Numbered from the stretch's first letter, positions 10,287 to 26,590 are shown. The stretch: 55,733 bases of DNA from Nitrospirota bacterium (GCA_015484595.1 WFMM01000053.1:1-55733), one strand, 5' to 3'. Notes: generated from the letters alone by a model not told the origin. Program-made: numbers and translations.

Positions 10287-10340
10287 TTTAAGATTTAAGA
10301 TTTTAGATCTTAGATTTGGGGTTTGGGATTTGGGATATTG
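10286..10340. repeat. Degenerate heptamer tandem array (GATTTAA/GATTTTA/GATTTGG)
   Basis: gatttaa gatttaa gatttta gatctta gatttgg ggtttgg gatttgg gatattg. Confidence 0.8.
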
Positions 10341-10435: not shown

Positions 10436-10768
10436 GTGAAGCACAAAAGGTACTGCGTTAAGACCTGCATCTATATTCCCCTTACTGTCTTTGTCTTTTG
10501 CCTGGCAGGATTGCTCGTTACCATCTTCGGGGTAAGAGACAGGATTGCAATTGAAGAGGAAGAACGCTTATGCATTATGATACAGACCCATCAATTGCTC
10601 CATAATCCCATTGAGCGGATGATTATAGTGAAGACCGTGGTGGAGAGAAAGTACGGAAGCACTGTATGGACAGGTGCATATACACTTTTTGGTCTCAGGT
10701 ATGCAGAGGTAAGAGCTGTTTGTGACGGAGAGGCAGAGGTGTTATGGAGGCGGTGGTTTGGCAGATGA
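10436..10768 (+). CDS. Hypothetical single-TM protein (start uncertain, GTG 10436 chosen)
   Basis: Hydrophobic stretch IYIPLTVFVFCLAGLLVTIFGV; upstream TGGTATAAT extended -10 at about 10348-10356. The ORF-track N-terminus runs through the repeat array. Confidence 0.5.
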   Translation: MKHKRYCVKTCIYIPLTVFVFCLAGLLVTIFGVRDRIAIEEEERLCIMIQTHQLLHNPIERMIIVKTVVERKYGSTVWTGAYTLFGLRYAEVRAVCDGEAEVLWRRWFGR

Positions 10769-11513: not shown

Positions 11514-12743
11514 ATGCTGGCTATGGAAAGGGTGATACTTTTAATAGACATGGATGCCTTCTTTGCCTCGGTGGAGCAGCAGTCTAATCCGTCCCTGAGG
11601 GGTAAGCCCATTGCCGTAGTTGGTGCTGGAAAAAGAACCGTGGTTACCACTTCATCATACGAGGCAAGGGCACGGGGGGTAAAGACCGGCATGAACCTCT
11701 ACGAGGCAAAGCAGGTCTGCCCTGAGCTTACAGTGGTGGTGGGCAACAACCACAAGTACACCTATACATGCACAAAGCTCAGGGAGCTTTATCTCCAATA
11801 CACACCCGATGTGGAGATATACTCGGTGGATGAGGCATTTCTTGATGTTACCACCACAGAGCACCTCTTTGGAGGGCCCCTTCAGATAGGAAAGATGATA
11901 AAAAGGGAGATAAAGAGGCGTTTTGGAATAAATGCCACCGTTGGTATTGGCCCAAACAAACTGATTGCCAAACTTGCAGCCGACCTTTCAAAGCCTGATG
12001 GCCTTAGGTGGATAAAAAAACAGGATGTGCCCCATGTGCTTGAGAATCTGCCAGTGGAGGAGCTCTGGGGAGTGGGAAAGCGTATGGCAGAGCACCTTGG
12101 GAGGCTTGGCATAAGGACCTGTGGAGAGCTTGCCCGCACACCGGTTGGGGTGCTAAGGAGCCGATTCGGCATTGTGGGCGAGCACCTTAAACGCATGGCA
12201 CAGGGGCTTGATGACTCGCCTGTGGTGGCAGATGGTGAAGAAACAGAGGATGTAAAGTCCATAGGCCACAGCATGACCCTGCCAGAGGATGTCCACAGGA
12301 TGCCCGAGATCAGGGCCTATTTGCTTTTACTTTGCGACAGGGTCTCATTCAGGGCAAGGCAGTACGGATACAAGGGCAGAACAGTCACGCTGATTATACG
12401 GTACAGGAGTTTTGAGACCTTCTCGGTAAGAAAAAAACTCGACACGCCCACTGACGACAGCCACAGGCTGTTCAGGGCGGTCTGCGAGCTCCTGGATGGT
12501 TTGCGACTGAGGGAGCCGGTGAGGCTTCTTGGGGTCTCAATGGGCTCTCTGCAAAGGCAGTCAGGACAGCTTGCCCTGTTCCCTGAGCAGGACCGCAGAA
12601 GAAGGCTTCTTGAGACCATGGACAGGATAAACCTTCGCCACGGCCTGAGAAGTATCGTATGGGCAGCAACCCTTGAGCCAAAAAGGCAGCCAGGGGTGAT
12701 ATCCCCTGCCTGGCGGCCAGAGGGGGTGCACAGAAGTCTTTAG
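11514..12743 (+). CDS. dinB: Y-family DNA polymerase IV
   Basis: IDMDAFFASVEQ, SYEAR..GVKTGM, YSVDEAFLD, KLAADLSKPDG, clamp motif QLALF, C-terminal DRIN.RHG...SPAW tail. Confidence 0.93.
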   Translation: MLAMERVILLIDMDAFFASVEQQSNPSLRGKPIAVVGAGKRTVVTTSSYEARARGVKTGMNLYEAKQVCPELTVVVGNNHKYTYTCTKLRELYLQYTPDVEIYSVDEAFLDVTTTEHLFGGPLQIGKMIKREIKRRFGINATVGIGPNKLIAKLAADLSKPDGLRWIKKQDVPHVLENLPVEELWGVGKRMAEHLGRLGIRTCGELARTPVGVLRSRFGIVGEHLKRMAQGLDDSPVVADGEETEDVKSIGHSMTLPEDVHRMPEIRAYLLLLCDRVSFRARQYGYKGRTVTLIIRYRSFETFSVRKKLDTPTDDSHRLFRAVCELLDGLRLREPVRLLGVSMGSLQRQSGQLALFPEQDRRRRLLETMDRINLRHGLRSIVWAATLEPKRQPGVISPAWRPEGVHRSL

Positions 12744-12828: not shown

Positions 12829-14241
12829 TCAGTGGTGCATTGCCATGTCGGCCGGGCTTCCAAGGCCAATGGAATCGAGATAGCTGTATATCTCTTTCAG
12901 CCCCTTTTTGATTGCCCTTTTTCCGTAAAGTCCAATGCCTGCGTAAAACCACTCAAACCTGGCAAGGTTCTTAAGTATATACTTCCATGAATAAAACCTT
13001 GCCATTGCCTTGAGGGTCTCTATCTGAAGTGTGACAGGGTCAAGTTCCTTTGGCCTGAACACTATGTGATGGGCATCGTATTTACTCCAGTCTGTATGAA
13101 GAAGCCTTCCCTCATCGCGCATTTCGTAAAAGAAGGGCGTGCCTGGAAGTGGGGTAAGTATCACGAACTGAACCGTGTCAATGCCTAACTTTATCGCGAA
13201 GTCTGCAGTCTTTCTTATTGTGTCAACATCGTCTGTGTCTGCACCGAGCACGAACATGCCGTGTATGTAGATGCCGTGATCCTTTACTGCTTTTATGCAT
13301 CGCACAATGTCATCTAAGTCCTGACTTTTGTTGTATGCCTTAAGGGTGCGTGGGTTTATGGACTCAAACCCGATGTATGTGGTGTCACAGCCAGAGTCAG
13401 CCATGAGTTTCAGGAGTTCCTCATCTCTTGCCACATCAGTGCGGACCTGTGCAGACCACTTAAACTTTATGCGCTCTGATAGCACAGCCCGGAGTATCTC
13501 CTTTGTCCTTTTCTTGTTAGCCGTGAAGTTGTCGTCAACGATAAACTTGGTTGCCTTTGAGATACTTGAGACATAGCGGAACTCTTCAACGGTCTTTTCA
13601 ACCGACTTAAAACGATACTTTCTTCCAAACATCTGGATGACCGAGCAGAACTTACAGTTAAAGGGGCAGCCACGGGATGTGGATACAGGATAGATGTTTG
13701 AAGGGTTCCATTTGTGCACGAGGCTGAAGTCTGGCTCGGGCAGACTGTCAAGGTCGGTTATTAAAGGATAGGGAGGGTTGTTTATCACTTTTCCGTCTCT
13801 GTCTTTGTAAGAGATGCCCTTTATGTCCTTAAGCGGAGGCTTTCCAGTGCTTAGGTGTCTTACCAGTGCTGGAAGCGAGTAGTCACCCTCACCTCTTACC
13901 ACGAAGTCAGCATGCTCAAGGGCCTCATCGGTCATGAAAGAGGGGTGCGCACCCCCGATTATTACAGGGATACCCTTTTCTCTCAAACGATCAGCGATAA
14001 TGTAGGCCCTTACTGCAGTGGGTGTGATGGTGGAGATGCAGACGAGATCAGAGTTTTCTATATATGACCAGTCTGGCTCTGCTGTATCTTCGATAAAGGC
14101 CTTTACCTCAAAGCCCATGTCACGGAGTATCGTGGAAAGGAGCACTGCACCAAGCCGTGGGATGGGAAATTTGCTGTAAACATGTGCTCCAGGAGAGCGT
14201 GCCTCAATAAATGAAATCCTTCTAACTTCCATTTCATCCAT
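12829..14241 (-). CDS. B12-binding-domain radical SAM protein
   Basis: IGGAHPS, RGEGD, TSRGCPFNCKFC, DDNF, GFES, TPLPGT; ATG at 14241 preferred. Confidence 0.9.
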   Translation of the reverse strand: MDEMEVRRISFIEARSPGAHVYSKFPIPRLGAVLLSTILRDMGFEVKAFIEDTAEPDWSYIENSDLVCISTITPTAVRAYIIADRLREKGIPVIIGGAHPSFMTDEALEHADFVVRGEGDYSLPALVRHLSTGKPPLKDIKGISYKDRDGKVINNPPYPLITDLDSLPEPDFSLVHKWNPSNIYPVSTSRGCPFNCKFCSVIQMFGRKYRFKSVEKTVEEFRYVSSISKATKFIVDDNFTANKKRTKEILRAVLSERIKFKWSAQVRTDVARDEELLKLMADSGCDTTYIGFESINPRTLKAYNKSQDLDDIVRCIKAVKDHGIYIHGMFVLGADTDDVDTIRKTADFAIKLGIDTVQFVILTPLPGTPFFYEMRDEGRLLHTDWSKYDAHHIVFRPKELDPVTLQIETLKAMARFYSWKYILKNLARFEWFYAGIGLYGKRAIKKGLKEIYSYLDSIGLGSPADMAMHH

Positions 14242-14287
14242 TATACGCCTTTTTGTCCTGAAATGCAATAGGTGAGGGTTGAATCAA

Positions 14288-14525
14288 GAGTTATGAGTGT
14301 TGAGTGTTGAGTTTATGGTTTTTTTACTAAACACTCAAAGCTATGCACTCAAAACTAAGAACTACTCCCTACACGCTACACCCTGTCTTTCAGAGCAGAA
14401 GCGCAGAAGTGCGGAAGTGCAGAAGGTTTGGGGAATTGAAAAATTAGAATTTAGTATTTGTTTAGGATTTAGAGATTAGGATTTAGGATTTTTTGTTTAC
14501 TATATGCTCTGTGTCCTCTGTGGTT
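14288..14525 (+). repeat. Modular palindromic intergenic element, copy A
   Basis: (GAGTGTT)n arm, core CTATGCACTCAAAAC (14341), CTACACCCT, 8-mer GCAGAAGT x4, (TTAGGAT)n, CTCTGTG..CTCTGTGGTT tail. Confidence 0.9.
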
Positions 14526-14569
14526 GGGTTTTATGCTATGTTCAAAGTCGTGATAAAATAAGACTGGTA

Positions 14570-16858
14570 ATGAAGAGGGTACTGATAAGGATAAGGGGAC
14601 GGGTACAGGGCGTTGGTTTCAGACCTCATGTCTTTAACCTCGCAACAGCACTTTCCCTTAAGGGCACCGTGAAAAACTCCTCAAAGGGCGTTACCATAGA
14701 CATTGAGGGAGAAAGGGTTGATGAGTTTATTAAACGGCTTAGAACATCGCCTCCACCACTTGCCGAGATAGAGGAGATCCATACCGAGGAACTTCCACCT
14801 GTCAATTACAGCGACTTCAGCATACTTCACAGCGAGGAAGAAGGCAGTTTTACCCATGTCTCACCTGATGTCTCAATTTGTGATGACTGCCTTAAAGAGA
14901 TGCTTGAGCCTTCAGACAGACGGTATCTTTATCCCTTTATAAACTGCACAAACTGTGGTCCCCGCTATTCCATAACCCTTAAACTTCCCTACGACAGGCC
15001 AAACACCACGATGAAGGTCTTTCAGATGTGCAGTGATTGCCTCAGGGAGTATCAGGACCCCAGGGACCGAAGATTTCACGCTCAGCCAAATGCCTGTCCT
15101 TCATGCGGTCCTTCTCTGACATTCAGGCTTACAAACAGAGAGCTTGAACACCTTTTGACTGAAGACCCGCTTGAAAGCACCATAAGGCTCATTCAGACTG
15201 GAGGTGTGGTTGCGATAAAGGGGCTTGGTGGGTTTCACATTGCCTGTGATGCCCTTAATACCAGGGCTGTGGAAAGACTGAGGGTGAGAAAGCGGAAAAG
15301 CAACAAGCCCTTTGCCCTGATGGCACCTGAGATTGATGCTGTAAAAAGGTTTGTTCATTTAGAGTCTGAGGATGAGCGTCTACTTTCTTCAAATAAAAGA
15401 CCAATAGTTCTTTTAAGAAAAAAAGAGAGATGCCCGATTCCTGAGGCAGTGGCTCCAAAAAACAGCTACCTTGGTTTTATGCTTCCCTACACACCCCTGC
15501 ACTATCTGCTTTTTTACTACCCTGTCAGTGGAGTTGCTCAGCCGAACTTTCAGTGTCTGATAATGACAAGTGGCAATCTTAGGGAGGAGCCCATAATTCA
15601 CAGAAACCAGGATGCCCTGGAGAGGCTTTCTCCTCTGGTTGATGCCTTTTTGTTTCACGACAGGGAGATTTTTATGAGGGTTGACGACTCGGTGATAAAG
15701 GAGGGGGTATTTATAAGGCGGGCAAGGGGATATGTGCCAGAGCCTGTAATGCTTGATGATGAGGGGCCTGAGGTGCTTGCCGTTGGGGCTGACCTTAAAA
15801 ACACCTTTACCCTTACCAGGGAACACTATGCAGTGGTCAGTCAGCACATCGGGGACATGGAAAACTTTGAGACCCTCTGTTTTTTTGAGGAGGTGCTTGA
15901 AAACCTGAAGTCTCTATACAGGATAAACCCGATGCACATAGCAGCAGACCTTCATCCTTCCTACATGAGCCGTCAGTGGGCAGAAAGGCAGGGTATTCCT
16001 GTTACTTACATCCAGCACCACCATGCACATGCAGCCGCTGTTATGGCAGAGCATGGAATTAAAGAGCAGGTCTTTGCAGTGGTTCTTGACGGCACAGGGT
16101 ATGGAACCGACGGGACAGTCTGGGGTGGAGAGTTTCTTATGGCAGGTATTGATGGTTTTAAGAGGCTTGCCCACTTTGAATACCTGCGCCTTCCAGGTGG
16201 TGAGATGGCAATAAAGGAGCCCTGGAGAATAGCCGTATCGGTTATTAATGACCTTTATGGAGGGCAATCTCAAAGATACCTAAGTGCCCTTGGATATTAC
16301 GATAGATTCCCGCCTGCGCAGATAGAAAGCATAAGAAAGATATCAAGGCTAACCCATTTCAGTCCCAAAAGTTCAGGCGCTGGACGGCTTTTTGATCTGG
16401 TTGCATCAATCACTGGGCTCGTTGACCTTAACACCTATGAGGCAGAGGCCCCGATAGCCCTTGAGTCCATGGTATGTGATGCGGTGGATGAGGGGTACGG
16501 GTTTAGCATCCTGACCGACTCAATACCCTGGAGGGTGAGCTTCAAAAAGGCTCTTAATCAGATGATTGATGGGGTTCTTAGGGGTGAGGCGGTTGAAATT
16601 ATCTCCACAAGGTTTCATAATACAGTGGCTGAGGCTGTCTGTGAGGTTATGGAGAGACTGAGAGATAGGGAAGGTGGCCTGGCCAAGGTGGTGCTTTCAG
16701 GTGGTGTTTTTCAGAATGTTTATCTTTTAAGGAGGATCAAAAAGGGGCTTAAGAGCAGGGGATTTCAGGTCTATTTTCATAAGAGGCTTCCACCAAACGA
16801 TGCCTGTATATCCCTTGGGCAGGCCTATATTTTAAGAGAAAGGCTTAATGGTTTATGA
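14570..16858 (+). CDS. hypF: Hydrogenase maturation carbamoyltransferase HypF
   Basis: Acylphosphatase domain GRVQGVGFRP, Zn fingers CDDC/CTNCGPR/CSDC/CPSCGP, KGLGGFH, QHHHAH, DGTGYG, PPND. Confidence 0.97.
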   Translation: MKRVLIRIRGRVQGVGFRPHVFNLATALSLKGTVKNSSKGVTIDIEGERVDEFIKRLRTSPPPLAEIEEIHTEELPPVNYSDFSILHSEEEGSFTHVSPDVSICDDCLKEMLEPSDRRYLYPFINCTNCGPRYSITLKLPYDRPNTTMKVFQMCSDCLREYQDPRDRRFHAQPNACPSCGPSLTFRLTNRELEHLLTEDPLESTIRLIQTGGVVAIKGLGGFHIACDALNTRAVERLRVRKRKSNKPFALMAPEIDAVKRFVHLESEDERLLSSNKRPIVLLRKKERCPIPEAVAPKNSYLGFMLPYTPLHYLLFYYPVSGVAQPNFQCLIMTSGNLREEPIIHRNQDALERLSPLVDAFLFHDREIFMRVDDSVIKEGVFIRRARGYVPEPVMLDDEGPEVLAVGADLKNTFTLTREHYAVVSQHIGDMENFETLCFFEEVLENLKSLYRINPMHIAADLHPSYMSRQWAERQGIPVTYIQHHHAHAAAVMAEHGIKEQVFAVVLDGTGYGTDGTVWGGEFLMAGIDGFKRLAHFEYLRLPGGEMAIKEPWRIAVSVINDLYGGQSQRYLSALGYYDRFPPAQIESIRKISRLTHFSPKSSGAGRLFDLVASITGLVDLNTYEAEAPIALESMVCDAVDEGYGFSILTDSIPWRVSFKKALNQMIDGVLRGEAVEIISTRFHNTVAEAVCEVMERLRDREGGLAKVVLSGGVFQNVYLLRRIKKGLKSRGFQVYFHKRLPPNDACISLGQAYILRERLNGL

Positions 16859-17922
16859 AAAAAGCCGATGCAATAAGAGGATATCTTGAGAGGATTATGC
16901 AGAAGATCGGGCGGCCTGTTCGCCTGATGGAGGTCTGTGGCACTCACACGGTCAGCATCTTTCGTCACGGGATAAGGTCTCTGCTGCCAGAGGGGCTTGA
17001 GCTTTTAAGCGGCCCTGGCTGCCCTGTTTGTGTTACATCCATTGAAGACATCGACAGGGCGATTAAGATTTCGGAACAAAGCGGAGCAATCCTTACCACC
17101 TTTGGCGACATGATGAGAGTCCCTGGCTCATACAGGAGCTTTTATGAGGCACGGGCAGAGGGGGCTGACATAAGGTTTGTCTATTCACCCTCAGATGCCC
17201 TGCGTCTTGCAAAAAAGACCCCTGAGCGGAAGGTGGTCTTTTTTGGAGCAGGCTTTGAGACCACCTCTCCCCTTGTTGCCTCGGTGATTAAGGTGGCCCT
17301 GGAAGAGGGGATTAAAAACTTCTATGTCTATTCGGTTCACAAGCTTGTGCCACCAGCACTGAGGGCACTTTTGCAGGATAAAGAGGTCAGGGTGGATGGG
17401 TTTATACTGCCAGGGCATGTAAGCACCATAATCGGCATAAGGCCCTATGAGTTTTTGGCATCAGAGTTTAACCGTCCAGGTGTGATAACCGGGTTTTCAC
17501 CTGATGAGATCATCGAGGGAGTGGGTATGTTACTAAGGCAGATTGCCTCAGGCAGGGCAGAGATAGAGATTCAGTACAAAAAGGTGGTAAGACCTGAAGG
17601 AAACCCGCAGGCCTTAAAAATCCTTTACGAGGTCTTTTCCGAGGCAGACTCCTACTGGCGGGGCATCGGAAACATCCCCTTAAGTGGGCTTGAACCATCA
17701 GAAAGATACAGCTTCGTGGATGCAAAAAGGGTGTTTGACATATCTGTGCAATCAAAACCCGAGCCAAAGGCATGCTCCTGTGGTGAGGTGCTAAGGGGGG
17801 TTAAAAAGCCAACGGACTGCCCGCTCTTTGGCAAGGCCTGTACCCCTGAAAGACCAGTGGGAGCCTGTATGGTAAGCACAGAGGGAAGCTGTTCAGCCTA
17901 TTACAGGTACGGAAGGTATTAG
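16855..17922 (+). CDS. hypD: Hydrogenase maturation protein HypD
   Basis: MEVCGTHT, GPGCPVCV, GFETT, PGHVS, CMVSTEGSC. Confidence 0.97.
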   Translation: MKKADAIRGYLERIMQKIGRPVRLMEVCGTHTVSIFRHGIRSLLPEGLELLSGPGCPVCVTSIEDIDRAIKISEQSGAILTTFGDMMRVPGSYRSFYEARAEGADIRFVYSPSDALRLAKKTPERKVVFFGAGFETTSPLVASVIKVALEEGIKNFYVYSVHKLVPPALRALLQDKEVRVDGFILPGHVSTIIGIRPYEFLASEFNRPGVITGFSPDEIIEGVGMLLRQIASGRAEIEIQYKKVVRPEGNPQALKILYEVFSEADSYWRGIGNIPLSGLEPSERYSFVDAKRVFDISVQSKPEPKACSCGEVLRGVKKPTDCPLFGKACTPERPVGACMVSTEGSCSAYYRYGRY

Positions 17923-18665
17923 TCTTCAGTACATAGGGTGTTTATCCTGTGGGCAAGGCAACCTGCGCCAAAGCCGTTGTCTATGTTTACCACTGCAATG
18001 CCAGGCACGCAGGAGTTAAGCATGGAAAAAAGTGCTGTAAGACCGCCAAAGGATGTGCCGTAACCTGTGGATGTTGGCACTGCTACGATTACCTTATCTG
18101 TAAGTCCACCCACCACAGAGGGCAAAGCCCCCTCCATACCGGCAACCACAACCAGCACCCTGGCCTTTTGTATATCCTCTTTGTAGTTAAAAAGCCTGTG
18201 TATCCCTGCCACTCCCACATCCAGTATGGTCTTAACGCTGCTTCCAAGAAAGGATGCAGTAAGTGCTGCCTCCTCAGCCACTGGCAGGTCAGAGGTGCCT
18301 GCAGAAAGCACGAGCACCGAGCCTGTCTTTTTCTTTTCCTCACCTGCCATGATTATGCGGGAGGCAGGATAAAACCTTGCAGCCCTGATGCGTAATGCCC
18401 TTTTTATCTCCTCTGAGGCTCGGGTGATAAGGAGTCTTTTAGACTTCCTGTAAATACTCCTTGCAATACTTACCACATCCTCAGTGGATTTTCCCTCGGC
18501 AAAAACCACCTCAGGAATTCCCTGTCGTAGGTGGCGGTGATGGTCAACATGTGAGTTGGTAAGCCTTTCAAAGGGCAGGTCTTTCAGCCTTTCAAGGGCC
18601 TCTTTCTTGGAGATACTGCCCTTTGCAACCCCTTCAAGCAGGCTTTTTATTTCTTCAATATTCAT
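17919..18665 (-). CDS. larB: Nickel-pincer cofactor biosynthesis protein LarB (PurE-like)
   Basis: DHHR..RQG.PEVVFAEGK, AGTSDLPVAEEA, DVGVAGIHRL, AGMEGALPSVV, VPTS.GYG, VNIDNGFGAG. Confidence 0.92.
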   Translation of the reverse strand: MNIEEIKSLLEGVAKGSISKKEALERLKDLPFERLTNSHVDHHRHLRQGIPEVVFAEGKSTEDVVSIARSIYRKSKRLLITRASEEIKRALRIRAARFYPASRIIMAGEEKKKTGSVLVLSAGTSDLPVAEEAALTASFLGSSVKTILDVGVAGIHRLFNYKEDIQKARVLVVVAGMEGALPSVVGGLTDKVIVAVPTSTGYGTSFGGLTALFSMLNSCVPGIAVVNIDNGFGAGCLAHRINTLCTED

Positions 18666-18689
18666 ATTTCCGAACTATTTCGATATCTT

Positions 18690-18979
18690 AACCACAGAGA
18701 ACACAGAGCACACAGAGCACACAGAGTATATAGTAAAACAAAAAATCCTAAATCCTAAACATTACAGGGTGTAGGGGGTAGTTTTTAGTGTTGAGTGCAT
18801 AGTTTTTAGTGTTTAGTAAAGAGACTAACTCATCACTCAAAATTCAACACTCAACACTAACTAAACCCCCCAATCCCACCCAACGCAATTAACACTATTA
18901 ACCCGATAAACGCTATTAACGCAATTAACGCAAAAAACGCTATTAACTCGATAAACGCTATCAACGCAACTAACGCAAT
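18690..18979 (-). repeat. Modular palindromic intergenic element, copy B
   Basis: On the minus strand: 9-mer (TTGCGTTAA-like) x~11, GGGTGGGATTGGGGGG, (GAGTGTT)n, core CTATGCACTCAA (18791-18802), CTACACCCTG, TTAGGAT x2, (CTCTGTGTG) x4. Confidence 0.92.
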
Positions 18980-19960
18980 TTACCATCTGATAAGTGCTGA
19001 GCCCCAGGTCAGGCCTCCTCCAAACGCCTCAAGCAGTATGTAGTCGTCCTTTTTTATCCTGCCTGTCCTGACTGCTTCGTCAAGTGCAATGGGGATTGAT
19101 GCTGCAGAGGTGTTACCGTGTCGGTCAAGCGTGAGCATCACCCTGTCAAGACCCAGACCAAGCCTCTTTGCAGTGGCTGCTATTATACGGTGATTAGCCT
19201 GATGTGGTATCAGCAGGGAGAGTTCCTCTGGCTTTACCCTGTTTTTCTTAAGTGTATCTACAACCAGCTTCTCAAGGGTCCTTACTGCAACCCTGAAGGT
19301 TTCGTTTCCACGCATCTTTATAAAGTGAAGACGGTTTTTCACGGTCTCCTTTGTTGCAGGCATCCTTGAGCCTCCTGCAGGGATATGAAGCAGGTCCCAC
19401 ATGGAGCCGTCTGCATAGATGTCAACCGAGAGCACCCCCCTTTTAGCCTTTGTTTTTTCAAGCACCACTGCACCAGCACCATCGCCAAGGAGCACACAGG
19501 TGGTGCGGTCCTGCCAGTCAGTTGCGCGGGAGAGCGTTTCTGCACCAACAAGTAGTATCCTTTCGTAGGTACCTGAGCGTATAAATGCATCTGCCACAGA
19601 AAGGCCGTAGATAAAGCCTGAGCAGGCAGCGTTTAAGTCAAAGGCAGGGGTGTCCTTTGCTCCTAATTTGTGCTGAAGTATGCAGGCCGTTGAGGGAAGA
19701 AGCATATCAGAGGTAACCGTGGCAACCAGTATGAGGTCAATGTCCTTTGGCTTAAGCCCTGCTGCCCTTAGGGCCTCCCGTGATGCCATGAGGGCAAGGT
19801 CTGATGTGGCCTCCTCCTCTGCTGCAATCCTTCTTTCCCTGATGCCGGTTCTTTCCCTTATCCACTCATCCGATGTCTCAACCATCCTTTCAAGGTCAAA
19901 ATTGGTAAGGACCCTTTTGGGCAGATAAGAGCCTGTTCCGATAATCCTTGAGCGTACCAA
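18980..19960 (-). CDS. fabH: 3-oxoacyl-ACP synthase III
   Basis: AACSGF, GDGAGA, PHQAN, GNTSAASIP, FGGGLTWG. Confidence 0.97.
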   Translation of the reverse strand: MVRSRIIGTGSYLPKRVLTNFDLERMVETSDEWIRERTGIRERRIAAEEEATSDLALMASREALRAAGLKPKDIDLILVATVTSDMLLPSTACILQHKLGAKDTPAFDLNAACSGFIYGLSVADAFIRSGTYERILLVGAETLSRATDWQDRTTCVLLGDGAGAVVLEKTKAKRGVLSVDIYADGSMWDLLHIPAGGSRMPATKETVKNRLHFIKMRGNETFRVAVRTLEKLVVDTLKKNRVKPEELSLLIPHQANHRIIAATAKRLGLGLDRVMLTLDRHGNTSAASIPIALDEAVRTGRIKKDDYILLEAFGGGLTWGSALIRW

Positions 19961-19978
19961 TTATCCCTTTTGACCTCC

Positions 19979-21013
19979 TTATACTGGTTCTGGCTGCTCA
20001 GAGGGCTGACTCAGCACATCCCTGTAACGGGCGAGCTCAGCCACTATCTCCTGATAGAACCTCTGTTTTGCAAATTTGTTAGCCAGTTTCAGGGCATTTC
20101 TGATGGCCTTTGAGCTTGAACGGCCATGGCTTATCAGACAGGTGCCGTTTATGCCAAGAAGTGGTGCTCCACCGTATTCTGAGTAATCGGTTTTGCGTTT
20201 GAAGTTCCTGAGTGCAGGCTTCATAAGCATATAGGCAAGTTTCCCGGTAGCAATATTTGCAATCTCCCTTTTAAGCATCTTTATAATGGTATCAGCAAGA
20301 CCCTCGCTTACCTTAAGGACGATATTCCCCACAAAACCATCACATACAATCACATCTGCCTGACCGGTAAAGATGTCTTTACCCTCTATGTTTCCTATAA
20401 AGTTAATTCCTGTGTTTTTTATTAACTTGAAGGCCTCCTTTGTAAGCTCGTTTCCCTTGGTGTCTTCCTCACCTATGCTCAGTAGGGCGACCCTTGGCTC
20501 TTCAATTCCGAGAATCCTCTTTGAAAAGGCCCTTCCCATGAGGGCAAACTGAAGGAGATTTTCAGGGTCTGAATCCACATTTGCCCCTGCATCTAAGAGG
20601 ACAAAGGGGGTGGTAAGTGTGGGCATGGTGGTGGCGATTGCAGGACGATGAACACCCTCAGACTTTCCAAGCATCAGAAGCGAAAGAGCCATGACCACAC
20701 CAGAGTGACCGGCACTTACAAAGGCGTCTGCCTCGCCGTTTTTAACTAACTCTATGCCCCTTCTGATAGAGGAGTCCCTTTTCCTCCTAATTGCAGTAGA
20801 GATGTCGTCTTCCATCTCTACCTGCTCAGAGGCATGAAGGATGGAAAGCCTCTCCTCTGGGTAGCGTTTGCCCTTTAGTTCTGCCCTGATGCGGTCGGTG
20901 TCACCAACGAGAACGACCTCTATATCCTGAGTTTCCAATACAGTCTCAACTGCACCTTCAACAGTAGTGCGGGGGGCATGGTCTCCCCCCATAGCATCCA
21001 GAGAGATCCTCAT
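19979..21013 (-). CDS. plsX: Phosphate acyltransferase PlsX
   Basis: LDAMGGDHAP, LDAGAN, IGEEDTKG, CDGFVGNIVLK, GGAPLLG, HGRS. Confidence 0.97.
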   Translation of the reverse strand: MRISLDAMGGDHAPRTTVEGAVETVLETQDIEVVLVGDTDRIRAELKGKRYPEERLSILHASEQVEMEDDISTAIRRKRDSSIRRGIELVKNGEADAFVSAGHSGVVMALSLLMLGKSEGVHRPAIATTMPTLTTPFVLLDAGANVDSDPENLLQFALMGRAFSKRILGIEEPRVALLSIGEEDTKGNELTKEAFKLIKNTGINFIGNIEGKDIFTGQADVIVCDGFVGNIVLKVSEGLADTIIKMLKREIANIATGKLAYMLMKPALRNFKRKTDYSEYGGAPLLGINGTCLISHGRSSSKAIRNALKLANKFAKQRFYQEIVAELARYRDVLSQPSEQPEPV

Positions 21014-21201
21014 AGCTCTTCTTTTTCTACTATCTCAAGAACCTTTCTTTCTTTGTAGGTTCCACAGCTGAGACATACCCTGTGTGGAAGTTTGAACTCA
21101 CCGCATTCAGGGCACTTTACCATTGAGGGGATGCTACCCTTCCAGTTAGCCCTTCTTTTGTCTCTGCGACAACGGGAATGTCTGGAATGTGGATTTGCCA
21201 T
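21010..21201 (-). CDS. rpmF: 50S ribosomal protein L32
   Basis: MANP..RHS..RRDKRR, CPECG...PHRVC..CG.Y. Confidence 0.96.
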   Translation of the reverse strand: MANPHSRHSRCRRDKRRANWKGSIPSMVKCPECGEFKLPHRVCLSCGTYKERKVLEIVEKEEL

Positions 21202-21202
21202 T

Positions 21203-21721
21203 TCAGTTCTCCTTTCTGCTGGATAAGAGTTTTTTTAGTATCGAAAGACGAGGGTCTATCTCGTCTTTTTTACAGTTACAGCTCTGAAGATTAAGGTCTG
21301 TGCCACAGACAGGGCATAGCCCCTTACACTCATCAGAGCAGAGGGGCTTCATTGGAAGATTAAGAAGCAACTGCTCCTTCACCACATCGGTGATGTCGAT
21401 TTCGTCGTCCTTATAATAACCAATCTCTGATTCGTCTCTTCCTATTTCGTGAATCTCTTCGGTGCTCATCTCCTCGATGGGTAGGTATGTCAGGTCAACA
21501 CTCAGCTCCAGGTCTCGCTGAAACTCTATAAGACAGCGGCTGCACTGAAGACAGACCCTGCCAGAGATGCTACCACTTATGTTTAGCTCAGAGGCCTTCC
21601 TGGTCAGGAAAAACTCTGCCTTTACATCTCCCATGGGCCTTGCAAGGGAGTTACCCTCAATGGGCTCGTTGAAGGAGACCCTGAGCCCTTCATCTTCGAT
21701 TTCTGATACCGTGATCTTCAT
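21203..21721 (-). CDS. yceD: DUF177/YceD family protein
   Basis: CSRCL, LPMKPLCSDECKGLCPVCG.DLN...C.C, DPRLS.LK; upstream of rpmF; ATG 21721 with SD AGAGG. Confidence 0.9.
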   Translation of the reverse strand: MKITVSEIEDEGLRVSFNEPIEGNSLARPMGDVKAEFFLTRKASELNISGSISGRVCLQCSRCLIEFQRDLELSVDLTYLPIEEMSTEEIHEIGRDESEIGYYKDDEIDITDVVKEQLLLNLPMKPLCSDECKGLCPVCGTDLNLQSCNCKKDEIDPRLSILKKLLSSRKEN

Positions 21722-21907
21722 TTTTTCCTCTAAAAGCATGGTTCCCTGTGATTGATTTGCTACCTTTCCCTTTGTCACGGAGAGGTTCTATTATTTTATC
21801 ATTATTCTATAAAATGAAGATACCCTTTCAGGGATTTGTGCTTTTCGGGGAATTAACATTATAATTTTTAAGATACTGGTGTCAAGGGAAAGAAATGAGG
21901 TGTAATG

Positions 21908-22108
21908 GTTATAGGGTTAATCGCGTTTATTGCGTTACTTGCGTTGGGTGGAATTGGGGTGTGTAGTTAGTGTTGAGTTTTGAGTGTTGAGCGTTGAGTT
22001 AAGGTTTTTTATTAAACACTGAAAACTATGCACTCAAAACTAAAACTACACCCTATACGCTACACCCTGTAATATTTAGAATTTAGATATTAGAATTTAG
22101 AATTTTTA
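21908..22108 (+). repeat. Modular palindromic intergenic element, copy C
   Basis: 9-mer (TTGCGTT..) x3-4, GGGTGGAATTGGGG, (GAGTGTT)n, core CTATGCACTCAA (22026-22037), CTACACCCTG, (TTAGAAT)n. Confidence 0.92.
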
Positions 22109-22126
22109 GCTGTATAGGGGGATTAT

Positions 22127-22405
22127 ATGGGTAAGACAAGGGTGCACCTGTTTATTGAGGGAAGGGTTCAGGGAGTATGGTACAGGGCCTTTACCCGTGA
22201 TGTGGCAATGAAACACAACATAAGGGGCTGGGTGAGAAATCTCCCTGACGGAAGAGTTGAGGCTGTTTTTGAAGGTGAGGAGGCTGATATAGAAAAGGCA
22301 GTGGCTGAGTGTTACAAGGGGCCGCCTGCTGCCCGTGTGACAAAGATAGACATTGACCGCCAGCCCTACAGTGGTGAATTCAGCGGGTTTGAGATTAGAT
22401 ATTGA
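22127..22405 (+). CDS. acyP: Acylphosphatase
   Basis: GRVQGVWYR, GWVRNLPDGRVEAVFEG, GPPAARV, FEIRY. Confidence 0.96.
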   Translation: MGKTRVHLFIEGRVQGVWYRAFTRDVAMKHNIRGWVRNLPDGRVEAVFEGEEADIEKAVAECYKGPPAARVTKIDIDRQPYSGEFSGFEIRY

Positions 22406-22672
22406 ATGCGTTGATCGCGTTAATTGCGTTCATCGAGTTAATAGCGTTCATTGCGTTACTTGTGTTCTTTGCGTTTATCGGGTTAATAGTGTTAATTGCG
22501 TTGGGTGGGATTGGGGGGTTTAGTTAGTGTTGAGTGTTGAATTTTGAGTGATGAGTTAGTCTCTTTACTAAACACTAAAAACTATGCACTCAAAACTAAT
22601 AACTACACCCTACACGCTACACCCTACACCCTGGAATGTTTAGAATTTAGGATTTAGAAATTAGGATTTTTT
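22406..22672 (+). repeat. Modular palindromic intergenic element, copy D
   Basis: 9-mer x~11, G-rich block, (GAGTGTT)n, core at 22582-22593, (CTACACC)n, (TTAGGAT)n. 22471-22593 is the exact reverse complement of 18791-18913. Confidence 0.93.
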
Positions 22673-22676
22673 ATTT

Positions 22677-23624
22677 ATGGACATAATAGAAAATATACTT
22701 TCAGGTGTCTCGATTCCTGAAGAGGAATTAATAGAGTTTGTAAAGACGGCTCCATTACACAGGCTTTTTTTCGTTGCCTCTGAGCTCAGAGCCCGTTACA
22801 GAGGGAGTTATATTGACCTCTGCTCAATAGTAAATGCAAAGTCAGGCAGGTGTGCCGAAGACTGTAAGTACTGTGCCCAGTCTGCACATTACAAGACCGG
22901 GGTAGAAAGTTATGGGCTTCTGGATGTGGAGAGGATTCTTGAACGTGCTAGTGAGGCAAAGGCACAGGGGGCAAGGAGATTCTGCATAGTTACAAGTGGT
23001 AAAAAGCCCTCAGAAAAGGAGCTCAGGCGTATTGCCCTTGCCATTGAGGGAGTAAGAGACCTGGGGCTTTTACCCTGCTCTACCCTTGGTCTTCTTGAAA
23101 GAGATGAACTGGCCCTTCTTAAGGAGGCAGGGCTTTACAGGTATCATCATAACCTTGAGACAGCAAGGAGCTTCTTCAGTGAGGTCTGTTCAACCCACAG
23201 TTATGAAGACAAACTCAGAACCATTCAGTCCGTTAAGGATGTGGGGCTTTCTCTTTGCTCAGGTGGCATATTTGGCCTTGGTGAAAGCTGGAGCCAGCGA
23301 CTTGAGATGGCTCTTGAACTAAAGAGGATCTCTCCTGATTCAGTTCCCGTAAATTTTTTGATACCCATAAAGGGCACTCCCCTTGGTGAACGCCCCAGGC
23401 TTGACCCTGTAGAGGCGTTAAGGATAATCAGCTTGTTAAGGATTGTTCTTCCTGATAAAGAGATAAGGGTCTGTGGTGGCAGGCTTCAGGTGCTTGGTGA
23501 GTTTAACTCAATGGTCTTTCTTGCAGGTGCTGATGGCCTTCTTACGGGTAACTATCTCACGCAAAAGGGAAGAAACGCAGCAGATGACCTCCAGATGATA
23601 AGGTCTCAGGGCCTTTCCTGTTAA
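22677..23624 (+). CDS. bioB: Biotin synthase
   Basis: NAKSGRCAEDCKYCAQS, YHHNLET, CSGGIFGLGE, VPVNFL.P.KGTP, GNYLT. Confidence 0.96.
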   Translation: MDIIENILSGVSIPEEELIEFVKTAPLHRLFFVASELRARYRGSYIDLCSIVNAKSGRCAEDCKYCAQSAHYKTGVESYGLLDVERILERASEAKAQGARRFCIVTSGKKPSEKELRRIALAIEGVRDLGLLPCSTLGLLERDELALLKEAGLYRYHHNLETARSFFSEVCSTHSYEDKLRTIQSVKDVGLSLCSGGIFGLGESWSQRLEMALELKRISPDSVPVNFLIPIKGTPLGERPRLDPVEALRIISLLRIVLPDKEIRVCGGRLQVLGEFNSMVFLAGADGLLTGNYLTQKGRNAADDLQMIRSQGLSC

Positions 23625-23625
23625 T

Positions 23626-24603
23626 ATGAAACCCACCTTCCACTTTAAACAGGTAAACCACCTGTTAGATGACCCTGTGGTTTATGTAAGGGTTATCAGA
23701 GAGGGCTATGCCCTGCTTTTTGATGCAGGAGAGCTACACAGCCTCAATTCAAGAGAGATTCACAAGATTAAGCATCTCTTTGTAACCCACATGCACATAG
23801 ACCACTTTATTGGTTTTGACAGGCTTATAAGGGTGCTTTTAAGTAGTGAAAAGACCCTTCATGTTTGCGGCCCAAAGGGTATAATTGATGCAGTAAAGGG
23901 TAAACTTTCAGGCTACACATGGAACCTGATAGTGCAGTATCCCCTGTGTATTGAGGTAAAGGAGTTTTCAGCGGGCACCATGAGGTGTATGCGGTTTTCA
24001 GCAAAAGAGGGCTTCAGACCTGCCCCGAAAGAGCCTGACAGCACCCCACCGTTAATCTTTGAGAACGAGCTCTTTGAGGTAAGCACAATGGAGTTTGACC
24101 ACGGCATCCCTGTGCTTGGCTACAGGGTTCAGGAAAAGGAACATCTAAATGTCGACACGGTCAGGCTTGAGAGACTGGGGCTTACCGTGGGGCCCTGGCT
24201 TGGAAGACTTAAGGAGCTTATCCGAAAGGGAAGGCTTGATGACAGGGTTTCTGTGACTGGAACAGACAGGCAGGTGTTGGTTGGGGAGATGCTTTCAGAG
24301 GGCGTTGTAAGACGAAGCAGGGGACAGAGGTTTTCCTATATTATGGACATTGCCCCTACTGATGAAAACATCCAGAGGGCAATAGATTTCGTAAGAGGCT
24401 CGGATGCACTTCTTATTGAGGCCTACTTCCTTGAAGAGGACAGAGAAAGGGCCATTCAAAGGAGACACCTTACTGCAGCACTTGCAGGCAAACTTGCAAG
24501 GGAGGCATCTGTTAAAGAGGTATTTCCACTTCATGTATCTCCAAAGTACAAGGGCTCTGAGGATAGGGTCTTAAAGGAGCTTTATGAGAACTTCAGACAT
24601 TAA
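23626..24603 (+). CDS. Ribonuclease Z-like metallo-beta-lactamase-fold hydrolase
   Basis: LFDAG, THMHIDHFIG, DHGIP..GY, GPWL exosite region, IEAYF, HLTA, HVSPKY. Confidence 0.85.
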   Translation: MKPTFHFKQVNHLLDDPVVYVRVIREGYALLFDAGELHSLNSREIHKIKHLFVTHMHIDHFIGFDRLIRVLLSSEKTLHVCGPKGIIDAVKGKLSGYTWNLIVQYPLCIEVKEFSAGTMRCMRFSAKEGFRPAPKEPDSTPPLIFENELFEVSTMEFDHGIPVLGYRVQEKEHLNVDTVRLERLGLTVGPWLGRLKELIRKGRLDDRVSVTGTDRQVLVGEMLSEGVVRRSRGQRFSYIMDIAPTDENIQRAIDFVRGSDALLIEAYFLEEDRERAIQRRHLTAALAGKLAREASVKEVFPLHVSPKYKGSEDRVLKELYENFRH

Positions 24604-25669
24604 ATCTAAAGTTTATTATATCTCCATCCTTTACCTCGTATGTTTTACCCTCAAGCCTCAAAAGTCCCCTCTGCCTTGCCTCTGCCATTGAACCTGAGGC
24701 AATGAAGTCGTCATAGCTTATTACCTCAGCCCTGATAAAACCCCGCTCAATGTCAGAGTGGATCTTTCCAGCAGCCTTCTGCGCAGGGGTTCCCTTCTTA
24801 ATCGTCCATGCCCTGCATTCGTCTTCACCGACAGTGAAAAAGGATATAAGCCCAAGGTGTTCGTAACAGACCCTGATGAGTCTGTTCATGGCAGGCTCCT
24901 TTATGCCAAGGTCTTCAAGAAATGCCTCCTGCTCCTCAGGTGAAAGCTGGGCTATCTCCATCTCTATCTTTCCTGAGAGCGTAACAGTGGGGTCGTTGAA
25001 TCTTTTGTTAAACTCTTCTAAAAGCTCCTTTTCCTTTGGTGTGTTAAGGGATGCCTCATCAAGGTTAATCACCATTACCTCTGGCTTAAGCGTAATAAAC
25101 TGTAGATGCCTCAGGGCAAGGAGTTCCTCTTCAGAAAACTCTACATCCCTGAGGGGTCTTTCGGACTCAAGGGAGGCCTTGCACTTTTTAAGCACCTCTT
25201 CCTCCTGAGGGTCTGTTTTTTTGCCCTTCTTTTTTGCCTCCGAAATACGCTCAAGCCTCTTTTCAACCAGCTCAAGGTCTGAAAATATAAGCTCAAGTCT
25301 TATGGTCTCGGCATCCCTTAATGGATTTACATCTCCAAGGGGATGGATTACTGAGTCGTCACTGAACCCCCTTATGACATGGACAATGGCATCCACATCC
25401 TTTATCAGGTCAAGGACCTTTCGGTTCTGGGCAAGGTCTCCCTTTGTGATGCCAAGATAGTCAACATACTCAACCGTAGCATGGGTTGTCTTTCGAGGCC
25501 TGTAGATTTCACTTAGCCTGTCAAGCCGCTCATCAGGCACCTTTACCACTGCTATGTGAGGCTCTGCCTCGGTGGTTGTGTAGATGGTGGTTGGAATGTC
25601 CATACCCGTAAGGGCATTGAATATGGTGGTCTTACCAACATTTGCTGCTCCAATGATACCGATCTTCAT
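24593..25669 (-). CDS. ychF: Ribosome-binding ATPase YchF
   Basis: GAANVGKTT, VPDERLD, DAIVHVIR, NLDE, FFTVG..E.RAWTI, AAGKIHSD, EGKTY.VKDGD. Confidence 0.95.
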   Translation of the reverse strand: MKIGIIGAANVGKTTIFNALTGMDIPTTIYTTTEAEPHIAVVKVPDERLDRLSEIYRPRKTTHATVEYVDYLGITKGDLAQNRKVLDLIKDVDAIVHVIRGFSDDSVIHPLGDVNPLRDAETIRLELIFSDLELVEKRLERISEAKKKGKKTDPQEEEVLKKCKASLESERPLRDVEFSEEELLALRHLQFITLKPEVMVINLDEASLNTPKEKELLEEFNKRFNDPTVTLSGKIEMEIAQLSPEEQEAFLEDLGIKEPAMNRLIRVCYEHLGLISFFTVGEDECRAWTIKKGTPAQKAAGKIHSDIERGFIRAEVISYDDFIASGSMAEARQRGLLRLEGKTYEVKDGDIINFRFNV

Positions 25670-25696
25670 AGATTAAGCTCCCTTCATTAATTATTA

Positions 25697-25839
25697 AGGG
25701 TGTAGGGTGTAGCGTGTAGGGAGTAGTTATTAGTTTTGAGTGCATAGTTTTTAGTGCTTAGTAAAAAAACACAGCAACTCAAAATTCAACACTCAACACT
25801 CAAAACTCAACACTCAACTACCCCCTACTCCCTACTCCC
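25697..25839 (-). repeat. Modular palindromic intergenic element, copy E (minimal hairpin core)
   Basis: Minus strand: GGGAGTAGGGAGTAGGGGGTAGTT-(GAGTGTT)n-loop-CTATGCACTCAAAAC-AACTACTCCCTACACGCTACACCCTACACCCT; core at 25736-25747. Confidence 0.92.
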
Positions 25840-26526
25840 TCAGCCCTGTCTTTTTAATTCGGCTTCTGATGGCCTTATGTAAAGGGGTGTAAGGGTTGCT
25901 GGGTCTGAAAATTCACCCCTCTGTGCCTTTTTCATTGAAGCCCAGGCAAGTGCTGAGGGCAGAGGGTGCATAAGGGCTCCCTCTGCAAACACTGCCATAT
26001 CGGAAAGCTCCCTTTTTATAACATCTCTGTATCGCTCTGTGCCAGTGCCTGCAAAGAGGGTTTTGTCTTTAATCATGGAGATAATCCTCTCAACTGGACT
26101 AACGCTGTCCTCTGTAAGCCTTTCTATCTCACCACCCTGAGCCCTGAAAAGGGCACCATAGACCTCCTTCTTTCTTGCGTCAAACAAAGGACAAATTGTG
26201 TAGCTTGAATGAATAAACTGATGGGCAAAGGCCTCAAGAGAGGACAGGGCCACCACTGGTTTTCCTGTGGAAAAACAAAGTCCCTTTACAGTGCTCAGGC
26301 CAACCCTGAGCCCTGTAAAAGAGCCAGGCCCTATGGAGATGCTGAAGAAATCTACATCCCTTATGTTAAGTGATGTAAGCCTGAGCATATGCTGGATGGA
26401 AGGCACAATAGAGGCAGAGTGCCTCCTCTGGCTACCAAACCGTGCCTCTGCAAGCAGGCCCCTGTGGCTGTCAAAGAGACAGACCCCACCGACCTCAGAA
26501 GATGTCTCAATTGCAAGGGTAAGCAT
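25840..26526 (-). CDS. tsaB: tRNA threonylcarbamoyladenosine biosynthesis protein TsaB
   Basis: LAIETS, GPGSFTGLRVG, DARKKEVY, PLYIRPS.AE. Confidence 0.95.
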   Translation of the reverse strand: MLTLAIETSSEVGGVCLFDSHRGLLAEARFGSQRRHSASIVPSIQHMLRLTSLNIRDVDFFSISIGPGSFTGLRVGLSTVKGLCFSTGKPVVALSSLEAFAHQFIHSSYTICPLFDARKKEVYGALFRAQGGEIERLTEDSVSPVERIISMIKDKTLFAGTGTERYRDVIKRELSDMAVFAEGALMHPLPSALAWASMKKAQRGEFSDPATLTPLYIRPSEAELKRQG

Positions 26527-26536
26527 AGTTAATACC

Positions 26537-26590
26537 GTTTGAGCTGTTTGAACAGTTTGAACCGTTTGAACCGTTCGAGCCGTTTGAACT
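26537..26590. repeat. 9-bp tandem array GTTTGAACC x6
   Basis: gtttgagct gtttgaaca gtttgaacc gtttgaacc gttcgagcc gtttgaact. Confidence 0.92.

Follow-up and report, generated by a model that had tools for sequence, protein, structure and literature searches.

Intervening sequences (IVSs) of the 23S rRNA that carry an S23p gene are the closest described relatives of the elements considered here. In Coxiella burnetii, the stem of the S23p IVS is cut by RNase III and bears tandem heptamers the number of which differs between strains, and IVSs are known too from Leptospira and Xanthomonas (Warrier et al. 2016, PMC4990558). Here we describe five palindromic intergenic elements, A to E, which are assembled from arrays of short words and lie on a 55,733-nucleotide contig of a Nitrospirota bacterium (GCA_015484595.1, WFMM01000053.1; contig C53 of the source draft genome, G000), the whole of which we refer to as the window. 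We propose, with a probability of roughly 55%, that the five elements are gene-less members of an IVS-like family of hairpin cassettes that carry a gene for a four-helix-bundle protein. Like the 23S rRNA IVS with S23p, related cassettes on contig C169 of the same genome and in a genome of another genus (G015) encode a PF05635/TIGR02436 protein in the loop of a stem formed by terminal inverted repeats, and they share with the Coxiella IVS variable tandem heptamers in the 5' arm, signs of horizontal acquisition and decay of the open reading frame (ORF) (PMC4990558). Where the IVS lies in helix 25 or 45 of the 23S rRNA, the cassette occupies spacers of mRNA, after a stop codon and ahead of a Shine-Dalgarno (SD) sequence; its arms are long heptad arrays of several words, and the five window elements are free of ORFs and multiplied to about 87 loci. 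Cleavage by RNase III is known for Coxiella and is a prediction here.

Intergenic palindromes are also abundant as repetitive extragenic palindromes (REP), REPINs and bacterial interspersed mosaic elements (BIMEs), which often lie within operons, are homogeneous within a genome and are built on a short imperfect palindrome of about 20-40 nt with a conserved GTAG head. The repeat of G000 is likewise abundant, intergenic, palindromic and often found in operons, but it is far longer, consists of phased 7-nt words, resides in a genome without a RAYT and is linked to the gene of a four-helix-bundle protein rather than a Y1 transposase. Two further parallels concern oriented heptamer arrays. The TAACTGA heptamers of Beggiatoaceae, cyanobacteria and Bacteroidetes are nearly all intergenic, come in two to six units, lie in 'forward' orientation just upstream of start codons and have a patchy phylogeny that suggests transfer (MacGregor 2015, PMC4679880). 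The top word families of G000 are nearly all intergenic as well, strand-biased with respect to the adjacent gene and close to start or stop codons; however, the available text of PMC4679880 deals with a single word and reports no hairpin, whereas several co-polar word families surround a palindrome in G000, and that text holds no occurrence of 'four helix', 'intervening sequence' or 'S23'. The quadruplex heptamers GGGNATC of Xanthomonas and Nostoc prefer four units, lie between aligned ORFs, either antisense within 50 bp upstream of a start codon or in sense at or overlapping a stop codon, and are generally without association to mobile elements (Rehm et al. 2015, PMC4692102). G-rich heptads in G000 obey the same positional rule, but their array is one arm of a hairpin of which the complement forms the other, and their quadruplex potential is a prediction from sequence.

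Each ingredient of the locus thus has a published relative, and their combination in mRNA spacers was not found in print: our search of openly accessible main texts returned nothing that unites IVS/S23p elements, heptamer arrays and REP-like hairpins, or that puts four-helix-bundle cassettes in mRNA spacers. The original prediction, a reading of the window by a model, had put the elements forward as a candidate for an undescribed system. This was too strong, because IVS/S23p elements, which are the gene-bearing relatives, and oriented heptamer arrays have already been published.

The repeat family and its link to small-gene cassettes

The draft genome G000 comprises 2.11 Mb in 170 contigs (45% G+C, 96.4% complete). 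Elements A to E all contain an exact copy of the 12-nt core CTATGCACTCAA, for which 0.26 matches are expected by chance and of which none of 100 shuffles reached six, and all five also contain CTACACCCT, as had been predicted. Across the whole genome the exact core occurs 29 times, and an nhmmer profile trained on the hairpin part of these 29 copies yielded 150 hits that resolve into 87 loci, 86 of them outside called genes, dispersed singly over at least 60 contigs. On C53 the profile-defined loci are exactly A to E, and the sequence reading agrees with the predicted coordinates (14288-14525, 18690-18979, 21908-22108, 22406-22672 and 25697-25839); between 30 and 55 kb, where the prediction had recognised no copy, nhmmer finds none and Tandem Repeats Finder (TRF) finds one small short-period array at 49135-49151. 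The description as a non-autonomous dispersed intergenic hairpin repeat therefore stands, whereas the 'invariance' of the core is confined to the window, as only 29 of the 87 loci have it exactly.

In the core's orientation, the parts of a complete copy are, in order, the 9-mer GCGTTNATN as an optional array, a G-rich block or (GGGTGTA)n, (GAGTGTT)n, a loop (about 20 nt) with TTTTTTACTA in it, a conserved 3' half that is non-repetitive yet phased in heptads (ACTAAAC ACTAAAA ACTATGC ACTCAAA ACTAAAA), (CTACNCC)n and, optionally, arrays of an 8-mer, of TTAGAAT/TTAGGAT and of CTCTGTGNN. G-rich heptads are complementary to C-rich heptads and GAGTGTT to the AACACT parts, and the whole unit is an imperfect palindrome with terminal inverted repeats, in some copies with an outer AAGACAGGG...CCCTGTCTT pair, and with a GTAG/CTAC pair at the base of the inner stem. 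The outer inverted 8-mer AGACAGGG/CCCTGTCT was set aside as a common coding word, since 131 of its 159 occurrences are genic. Among the species genomes scanned, the subfamily with the exact core is limited to G000 and its congener G001, plus one metagenome contig, and the exact pattern of the 3' half was found elsewhere only in the genome of a sister species (six loci) and on one metagenome contig. Another repeat family, with tandem units of about 95 nt that carry the GC-rich hairpin GAGGGGC...GCCCCTC followed by AAAGGGG...CCCCTTT, lies next to hairpin copies at C158:28350-28720 and C8:18700-18770.

Among the checks that the prediction proposed was a search for co-occurring genes for four-helix-bundle or GxxExxY proteins, and this one revealed cassettes that share arm words with the repeat. 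G000 holds three PF05635 genes (TIGR02436, 'four helix bundle protein') and one GxxExxY gene (PF13366) broken by TAG, all four of them co-oriented with their neighbours. On C169, the four-helix-bundle gene (117 bits with TIGR02436) lies in the acs operon between acsE and acsD and is bracketed by (GAGTGTT)n on the 5' side and (AACACTC)n on the 3' side, with the SD of acsD directly after. The PF05635 gene on C105 is bracketed by TATTGGT/ACCAATA words, which recur as an upstream module in some mosaics, and the GxxExxY gene on C152 by CACAGAG/CTCTGTG 9-mers. The hairpins of the window bear the arm words of the four-helix-bundle cassette and not those of the GxxExxY cassette, while the CTCTGTG module that ends elements A and B has the orientation and side expected of the 3' arm on C152. 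A profile of the 5' arm matches the 5' flank of the C169 gene (E 0.0016). When the complementarity between upstream and downstream flanks was ranked for 1909 genes of G000, the two four-helix-bundle genes that were scored came fifth and sixth, and both the C169 and the C152 cassette came up in an unbiased search for inverted arrays of the same word. Elements A to E, like the cassettes on C169, C105 and C152, sit between protein-coding genes and not in a 23S rRNA helix.

This architecture extends well beyond G000. PF05635 is present in 19 of 23 genomes of the bacterial family, and at 20 of 27 PF05635 loci the flanks form an inverted repeat (z >3), each with its own word; arrays in direct orientation account for some of the seven misses. 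Of 301 sampled genomes of the phylum, 19 (G000 among them) have a relative of the C169 protein at E <= 1e-25, the closest non-self relative having 60% identity, and inverted word arrays (z >3) were present at all 13 of the loci that were fetched. Four of these genomes (G256, G292, G237 and G273, 54-57% protein identity) carry TTTTGAG/TGTTGAG...CTCAAAA/CTAAAAA, the same words as in the window element. Viral contigs contained no relative of the C169 protein, and the PADLOC defence models gave no match.

Several observations touch on these cassettes. Nearly all spacers of the acs (CODH, carbon monoxide dehydrogenase/acetyl-CoA synthase) operon at C169:4300-15800 hold a short GAGTGTT-type hairpin without the outer CTAC arms (6612-6698, 10552-10642, 12646-12743 and 15672-15755). 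A second PF05635 cassette, with TATTGGT/ACCAATA words, occupies the same place upstream of the formate-tetrahydrofolate ligase gene in two genera (G000 C105:3400-3950, G001 C1:68949, G004 C116:6101 and G011 C68:4553). On C17 (1-800 and 4683-5069, locus L002), a PF05635 gene with inverted words of its own directly follows a CRISPR array with a repeat of about 36 nt, and the sole RNase III gene of G000 lies 4 kb from them on the same contig; '23S rRNA IVP' is named among CRISPR-linked domains in a figure legend of PMC10910872. At C8:25157-25489, a gene for a 77-aa thioredoxin-like protein (CPNC motif) is framed by inverted CTCTGTG-type 9-mers and ranks third of 1909 for flank complementarity; this gene may represent cargo of a third kind, or else belong to the host and be trapped between solo arms.

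Exchange, decay and turnover

The acsE-acsD junction proved informative on the history of the cassette. G015, although from another genus, has the same cassette, complete in both, at the same junction as G000, and the two cargo genes are 95.6% identical (93.4% at third codon positions), whereas acsE is 78.9% identical (48.3% at third positions) and acsD 77.0% (51.4%), with divergence resuming right at the acsE stop codon. High identity of the cargo, low identity of the flanks and the edge at the stop codon indicate that the cassette was exchanged as a unit bounded by its arms. At the same junction, G002 has an empty spacer of about 38 nt, G001 retains the 5' arm and about 105 nt of the ORF, the remaining ORF and most of the 3' arm being deleted, and G003 has a gene-less hairpin of another word (TGGTGTA...TACCA).

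Comparison of the five window sites with three congeners, run as the prediction had proposed, showed that modules are present or absent independently of each other. G002 has plain short spacers at all of them. In G001 and G003, sites B and D still have the 9-mer array, the G-block, the loop motif and CTACNCC, while the inner GAGTGTT/AACACT arms are lacking; at site E the 3' half alone is kept in G001, and the site is empty in G003 and G002. Conversely, 14 of 15 hairpin sites of G001 are syntenic in G000, and a hairpin is present in G000 at six of these 14. The six orthologous copies rank 6, 2, 2, 4, 1 and 2 of 66 by similarity. The repeat is long-lived and either constrained or homogenised, chiefly in its 3' half, and simple junk-DNA readings fail to explain its persistence.

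The five window elements

The modules of elements A to E and one neighbouring site are as follows.

14269..14390, plus strand: element A hairpin, with a 5' arm of GAGTGTT words, loop, conserved 3' half with the core, and CTACNCC heptads (nhmmer, 108.7 bits)
14395..14425, plus strand: element A array of the 8-mer GCAGAAGY, 3.9 units (TRF)
14450..14491, plus strand: element A array of TTAGGAT heptamers (TRF)
14505..14523, plus strand: element A CTCTGTG-type words, matching in word and orientation the 3' arm of the C152 GxxExxY cassette (sequence reading)
18693..18726, minus strand: element B array of the 9-mer CTCTGTGNN, 3.8 units, a solo 3'-arm word of the GxxExxY cassette (TRF)
18743..18759, minus strand: element B TTAGGAT heptamers (TRF)
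18758..18878, minus strand: element B hairpin; G001 and G003 lack its inner GAGTGTT hairpin at the orthologous site but keep the flanking arrays (nhmmer, 122.7 bits; spacer comparison)
18882..18980, minus strand: element B array of the 9-mer GCGTTNATN, 11 units (TRF)
21858..21885, minus strand: TTGACA-16-TATAAT, a perfect promoter-like site facing the divergent gene, kept in all four congeners and outside the repeat
21908..21952, plus strand: element C short 9-mer array and G-block (sequence reading)
21953..22078, plus strand: element C hairpin (nhmmer, 124.1 bits)
22074..22105, plus strand: element C TTTAGAA array, 4.6 units, which reads TTTAGA-17-TAGAAT (9 of 12 promoter positions) and lies 21 nt before the acyP start (TRF)
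22408..22502, plus strand: element D 9-mer array, 10.6 units (TRF)
22506..22638, plus strand: element D hairpin, the inner arms of which are absent at the same site in G001 and G003 (nhmmer, 136.6 bits)
22639..22669, plus strand: element D TTTAGAA/TTAGGAT array, 4.4 units, ending 7 nt before the bioB ATG (TRF)
25691..25840, minus strand: element E, fully palindromic, with (GGGAGTA)n, (GAGTGTT)n, loop, conserved 3' half and (CTACNCC)n (nhmmer, 123.7 bits)

The loops of the five elements measure about 20 nt and contain no S23p/four-helix-bundle ORF. Domain matches of the genes 3' of A to E (HypF domains; an AIRC domain as in LarB; acylphosphatase; radical SAM and BATS as in BioB; YchF) agree with the predicted identities hypF, larB, acyP, bioB and ychF. 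A placement of element C downstream of a conserved promoter was dropped, as the TTGACA-16-TATAAT site belongs to the minus strand, where it serves the divergent gene. At bioB (22639-22679) an SD is lacking and the ATG follows 7 nt after the four-unit TTAGAAT/TTAGGAT array; the transcript may be leaderless and start from within this array. The longest ORF of hypF begins at 14504 within the CTCTGTG words, and its acylphosphatase domain comes directly after an ATG in the same frame at 14570, the likelier start. Elsewhere in the window, another 9-mer, ACCGTTTGA (or GGTTCAAAC after rotation and complementing), forms an array of six units at 26534-26589 between two minus-strand genes, and the same word flanks a PF05635 gene in the relative G010 (contig C2); at 10279-10336, TRF reports abutting arrays of ATTTAAG (5.6 units) and GATTTGG (3.4 units) in a convergent spacer.

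Orientation and position relative to genes

Genes were placed with a crude ORF caller, and distances to start codons are therefore approximate. Among the 44 'strong' loci, defined as scoring at least 80 bits with the nhmmer profile, those between tandem genes are co-oriented in 18 cases and antisense in seven (binomial p 0.043), while 13 are in divergent spacers, two in convergent ones and four at contig edges; for all 86 non-genic loci the counts are 33 co-oriented and 20 antisense (p 0.098). The prediction that the elements always read in the sense of the next gene thus describes the five window copies but not the genome, where it is contradicted by the seven antisense loci, and even in the window the orientation of A and C is uninformative, because both sit in divergent spacers, in which any orientation faces a co-oriented gene. 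TTAGAAT/TTAGGAT arrays are co-oriented 70 times and antisense 18 times (p 2e-8), 9-mer arrays 33 and 11 times (p 0.0013). Within the mosaics, 74 flanking arrays share the orientation of the hairpin and three are inverted. A fixed order of modules, which had also been predicted, applies to the 9-mer array, found upstream of the hairpin in 33 of 37 cases, but not to TTAGAAT, which has 14 upstream and 13 downstream placements; 21 of the 61 hairpins are bare, that is, without any flanking array. Of all arrays with a period of 6-11, 728 of 1606 are intergenic, and the top word families are intergenic to 90-100%. At sites where gene strand and GC skew conflict, the gene is followed by six of seven hairpins, nine of 13 TTAGAAT arrays and six of eight 9-mer arrays (21 of 28 in total), which favours a link of array orientation to transcription over replication; local GC skew is a weak proxy for replication, because it partly mirrors gene strand (72% of genes sit on the G-rich strand).

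Position follows a pattern as well. For six of the seven antisense copies, the start of the outer G-rich array falls within -17 to +5 nt of a stop codon, and in three of them the stop TAG lies inside the array. Co-oriented copies in G000 have the 3' end of the hairpin 14-61 nt from the start codon in 12 of 18 cases, and in 11 of 15 copies of G001 an SD and a start codon follow the hairpin 3' end, as read from the sequences. Of the TTAGAAT arrays with at least three units, 70 face a gene on the same strand and eight a gene on the opposite one; their unit number peaks at four (41 arrays, versus 30 with three and nine with five units), and 20 of the 44 arrays with at least four units stop 5-29 nt short of the called start codon, in some cases without an SD in between. 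Four units, (TTTAGAA)4, spell TTTAGA-17-TAGAAT, a 29-nt span with nine of 12 promoter positions.

These patterns raise the question of whether the mosaics are host cis-regulatory modules rather than selfish DNA, with TTAGAAT arrays serving as portable promoters or A/U-rich translation leaders, and the hairpin with its C-rich heptads as a signal for the processing, stabilisation or insulation of mRNA or as a binding platform for a global regulator. The strand bias of TTAGAAT, the fit of its four-unit peak to the promoter-like span, the closeness of arrays and hairpins to start codons, the strong conservation of the 3' half and the retention of orthologous copies would all be accommodated, and there are parallels in the TAACTGA arrays upstream of start codons (PMC4679880) and in heptamers of Nostoc that alter reporter activity (bioRxiv 10.1101/2022.06.06.494920). 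However, the full hairpin is kept at none of the five window sites in G001, G003 and G002 (half of it at site E, in G001 only), eight of the 14 syntenic G001 sites have no hairpin in G000, the functions of the downstream genes are unrelated, seven of 25 strong copies in tandem context are antisense, and 21 of 61 hairpins are bare. We consider a regulatory explanation doubtful; it may coexist with a cassette origin, as would be the case upon domestication.

Folding of the hairpin

The hairpin comprises about 40 bp over about 121 nt with a mean minimum free energy (MFE) of -41 to -42 kcal/mol; for the 32 strongest genomic copies the mean is -41.4 kcal/mol (z -5.6 against mononucleotide shuffles), in agreement with the long imperfect hairpin proposed originally. 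Pairing registers step by exactly 7 nt, with peaks at i+j = 130, 137, 144 and 151. RNAalifold returned no consensus pair for 39 aligned copies (the five of the window, 20 others of G000 and 14 of the 15 fetched from G001, with L053 left out as a near-duplicate of L052), no pair of columns is used in 50% or more of this set, and MFE does not differ between sense and antisense strands (p 0.41). The blank RNAalifold result and the heptad-shifted registers show that complementarity exists at the level of words and is not positional. Nothing marks the repeat as a specifically folded RNA, and the check for a conserved fold with covariation came out negative. A scan of 14000-26100 against Rfam with a permissive E-value produced MIR781 only (24 bits versus a threshold of 88 bits, E 0.83), a chance match, in line with the prediction, which could assign the element to no known family.

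It is improbable that the G-rich and C-rich heptads (GGGTGTA/CTACACC and the G-block) are in essence G-quadruplex or i-motif repeats with an incidental hairpin. The antisense copies that start at stop codons fit the positional rule of Rehm et al. (PMC4692102), but the 3' half with the core, which is conserved best, is devoid of G or C tracts, the G-rich and C-rich blocks are mutually complementary and predicted to pair, and many arrays carry only two or three GGG tracts. A population of REP/REPIN sequences that is moved by a RAYT (Y1 transposase), or a transposable element of the miniature inverted-repeat class (MITE) derived from an insertion sequence, is more improbable still. The repeat is dispersed, intergenic and palindromic and has GTAG/CTAC at the base of the inner stem, which speaks for such an origin; yet PF01797 has no match in G000, for all its completeness, while the same search was positive in six of 14 control genomes. 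Furthermore, no reverse transcriptase was found, no target-site duplication is recognisable between filled and empty sites, the boundaries of which lie in repetitive words, no ORF of transposase size lies between the arms (DDE transposases were not searched for), and heptad arrays of about 120 nt compare with 20-40 nt in REPs. The kinship to REP/RAYT suggested by the prediction thus finds no support. The attC-like folded recombination sites of an integron-type cassette system, with which the repeat shares imperfect palindromes, a conserved unpaired motif, co-orientation with genes and the link to cassettes, are the least probable source, since copies are single and scattered through housekeeping operons without an array beside an integrase, and G000 has only four tyrosine recombinases (two of about 300 aa and two of about 400 aa, families untyped). 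The tie to gene cassettes raised in the prediction is supported, and the genes concerned are of the two kinds, four-helix-bundle and GxxExxY, that it had proposed to check.

Discussion

We favour the view that elements A to E are gene-less members of a family of hairpin cassettes. In its full form, such a cassette holds a small PF05635/TIGR02436 four-helix-bundle gene, with an array of 7-nt words on one side and the array's inverted complement on the other, and lies after the stop codon of one gene and ahead of the ribosome-binding site of the following one. The gene-less hairpin has spread to about 87 loci and is found within direct arrays of uniform polarity, which run in the direction of the gene. 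The mosaics would be transcribed together with the neighbouring gene. By analogy with the rRNA IVS, the long stem could be cut by host RNase III, to which we give about one chance in three; an RNase III gene (rnc) is present in G000, and cutting of the stem would render an insertion between stop codon and SD nearly harmless. Arrays would lengthen and shorten through slippage by heptads, and the 7-nt words may be the recognition sites of the cassette protein: that the protein recognises its word is suggested by the persistence of one word across proteins at 44-60% identity. TTAGAAT arrays beside start codons would act as promoter or leader modules.

A number of observations weigh against this view. 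The profile of the 3' arm gave no match to the C169 cassette at E <= 0.01, and no copy with the CTATGCACTCAA core in G000 encloses a cargo gene: there are 43 adjacent arm pairs, and the three 'split' pairs are merely neighbouring full elements. Because the subfamily is without cargo and the 3' arm fails to match, the link to the cassettes consists of shared words and layout and not of homology alignable over the whole element. The 9-mer array occurs in nearly one orientation only and was never seen as a cassette arm, and therefore not every module is a leftover arm. No target-site duplication is recognisable at sites A to E or at acsE-acsD, where boundaries lie in repetitive words, and uninterrupted helices are, at their longest, 11 bp in the median copy and never more than 19 bp. 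Identity between orthologous copies is 80-92%, a divergence no greater than that of coding DNA, which together with their similarity ranks points to vertical descent at a pace no faster than that of coding DNA. In addition, G001 has many hairpins and the C169-type cassette only as a deleted copy, and G003 has none of the three PF05635-type hits, which makes current mobilisation by the cargo protein doubtful. Finally, the 3' half is conserved far beyond the needs of pairing, which points to a sequence-specific function, one that the cassette origin does not name.

A broader and more tentative idea, which we think unlikely, is that word-array hairpins are the ends of widespread undescribed mini-cassettes with a four-helix-bundle protein (S23p/Avd-like) or a GxxExxY nuclease as cargo. 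Such mini-cassettes would settle in rRNA helices or in the gap separating a stop codon from the ribosome-binding site that follows. They would be removed from the transcript by RNase III and so constitute protein-free 'RNA-level introns'. A multimer of the cargo protein would bind their 7-nt words, and the retention of a single word within one protein clade over 44-60% sequence divergence would be accounted for in this way. Lastly, their gene-less offspring would spread like REPINs, with some modules (TTAGAAT x4) being co-opted as portable promoters or leaders.

The locus joins three phenomena that have been described separately, namely the rRNA IVS with its orphan S23p gene, oriented heptamer arrays and REP-like hairpins. 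What connects them are shared words, which make up the arms of a laterally exchanged four-helix-bundle cassette as well as the stems of a gene-less repeat that fills operon spacers. The acsE-acsD junction represents a natural experiment in this respect, because empty, full, deleted and gene-less states are found there in close relatives. To our knowledge, the large PF05635/TIGR02436 family has no known function. If the link is general, it would provide a first testable role for this family, the binding or mobilising of word arrays, and would suggest where the heptamer arrays of cyanobacteria, Beggiatoaceae and Xanthomonas, so far unexplained, come from.

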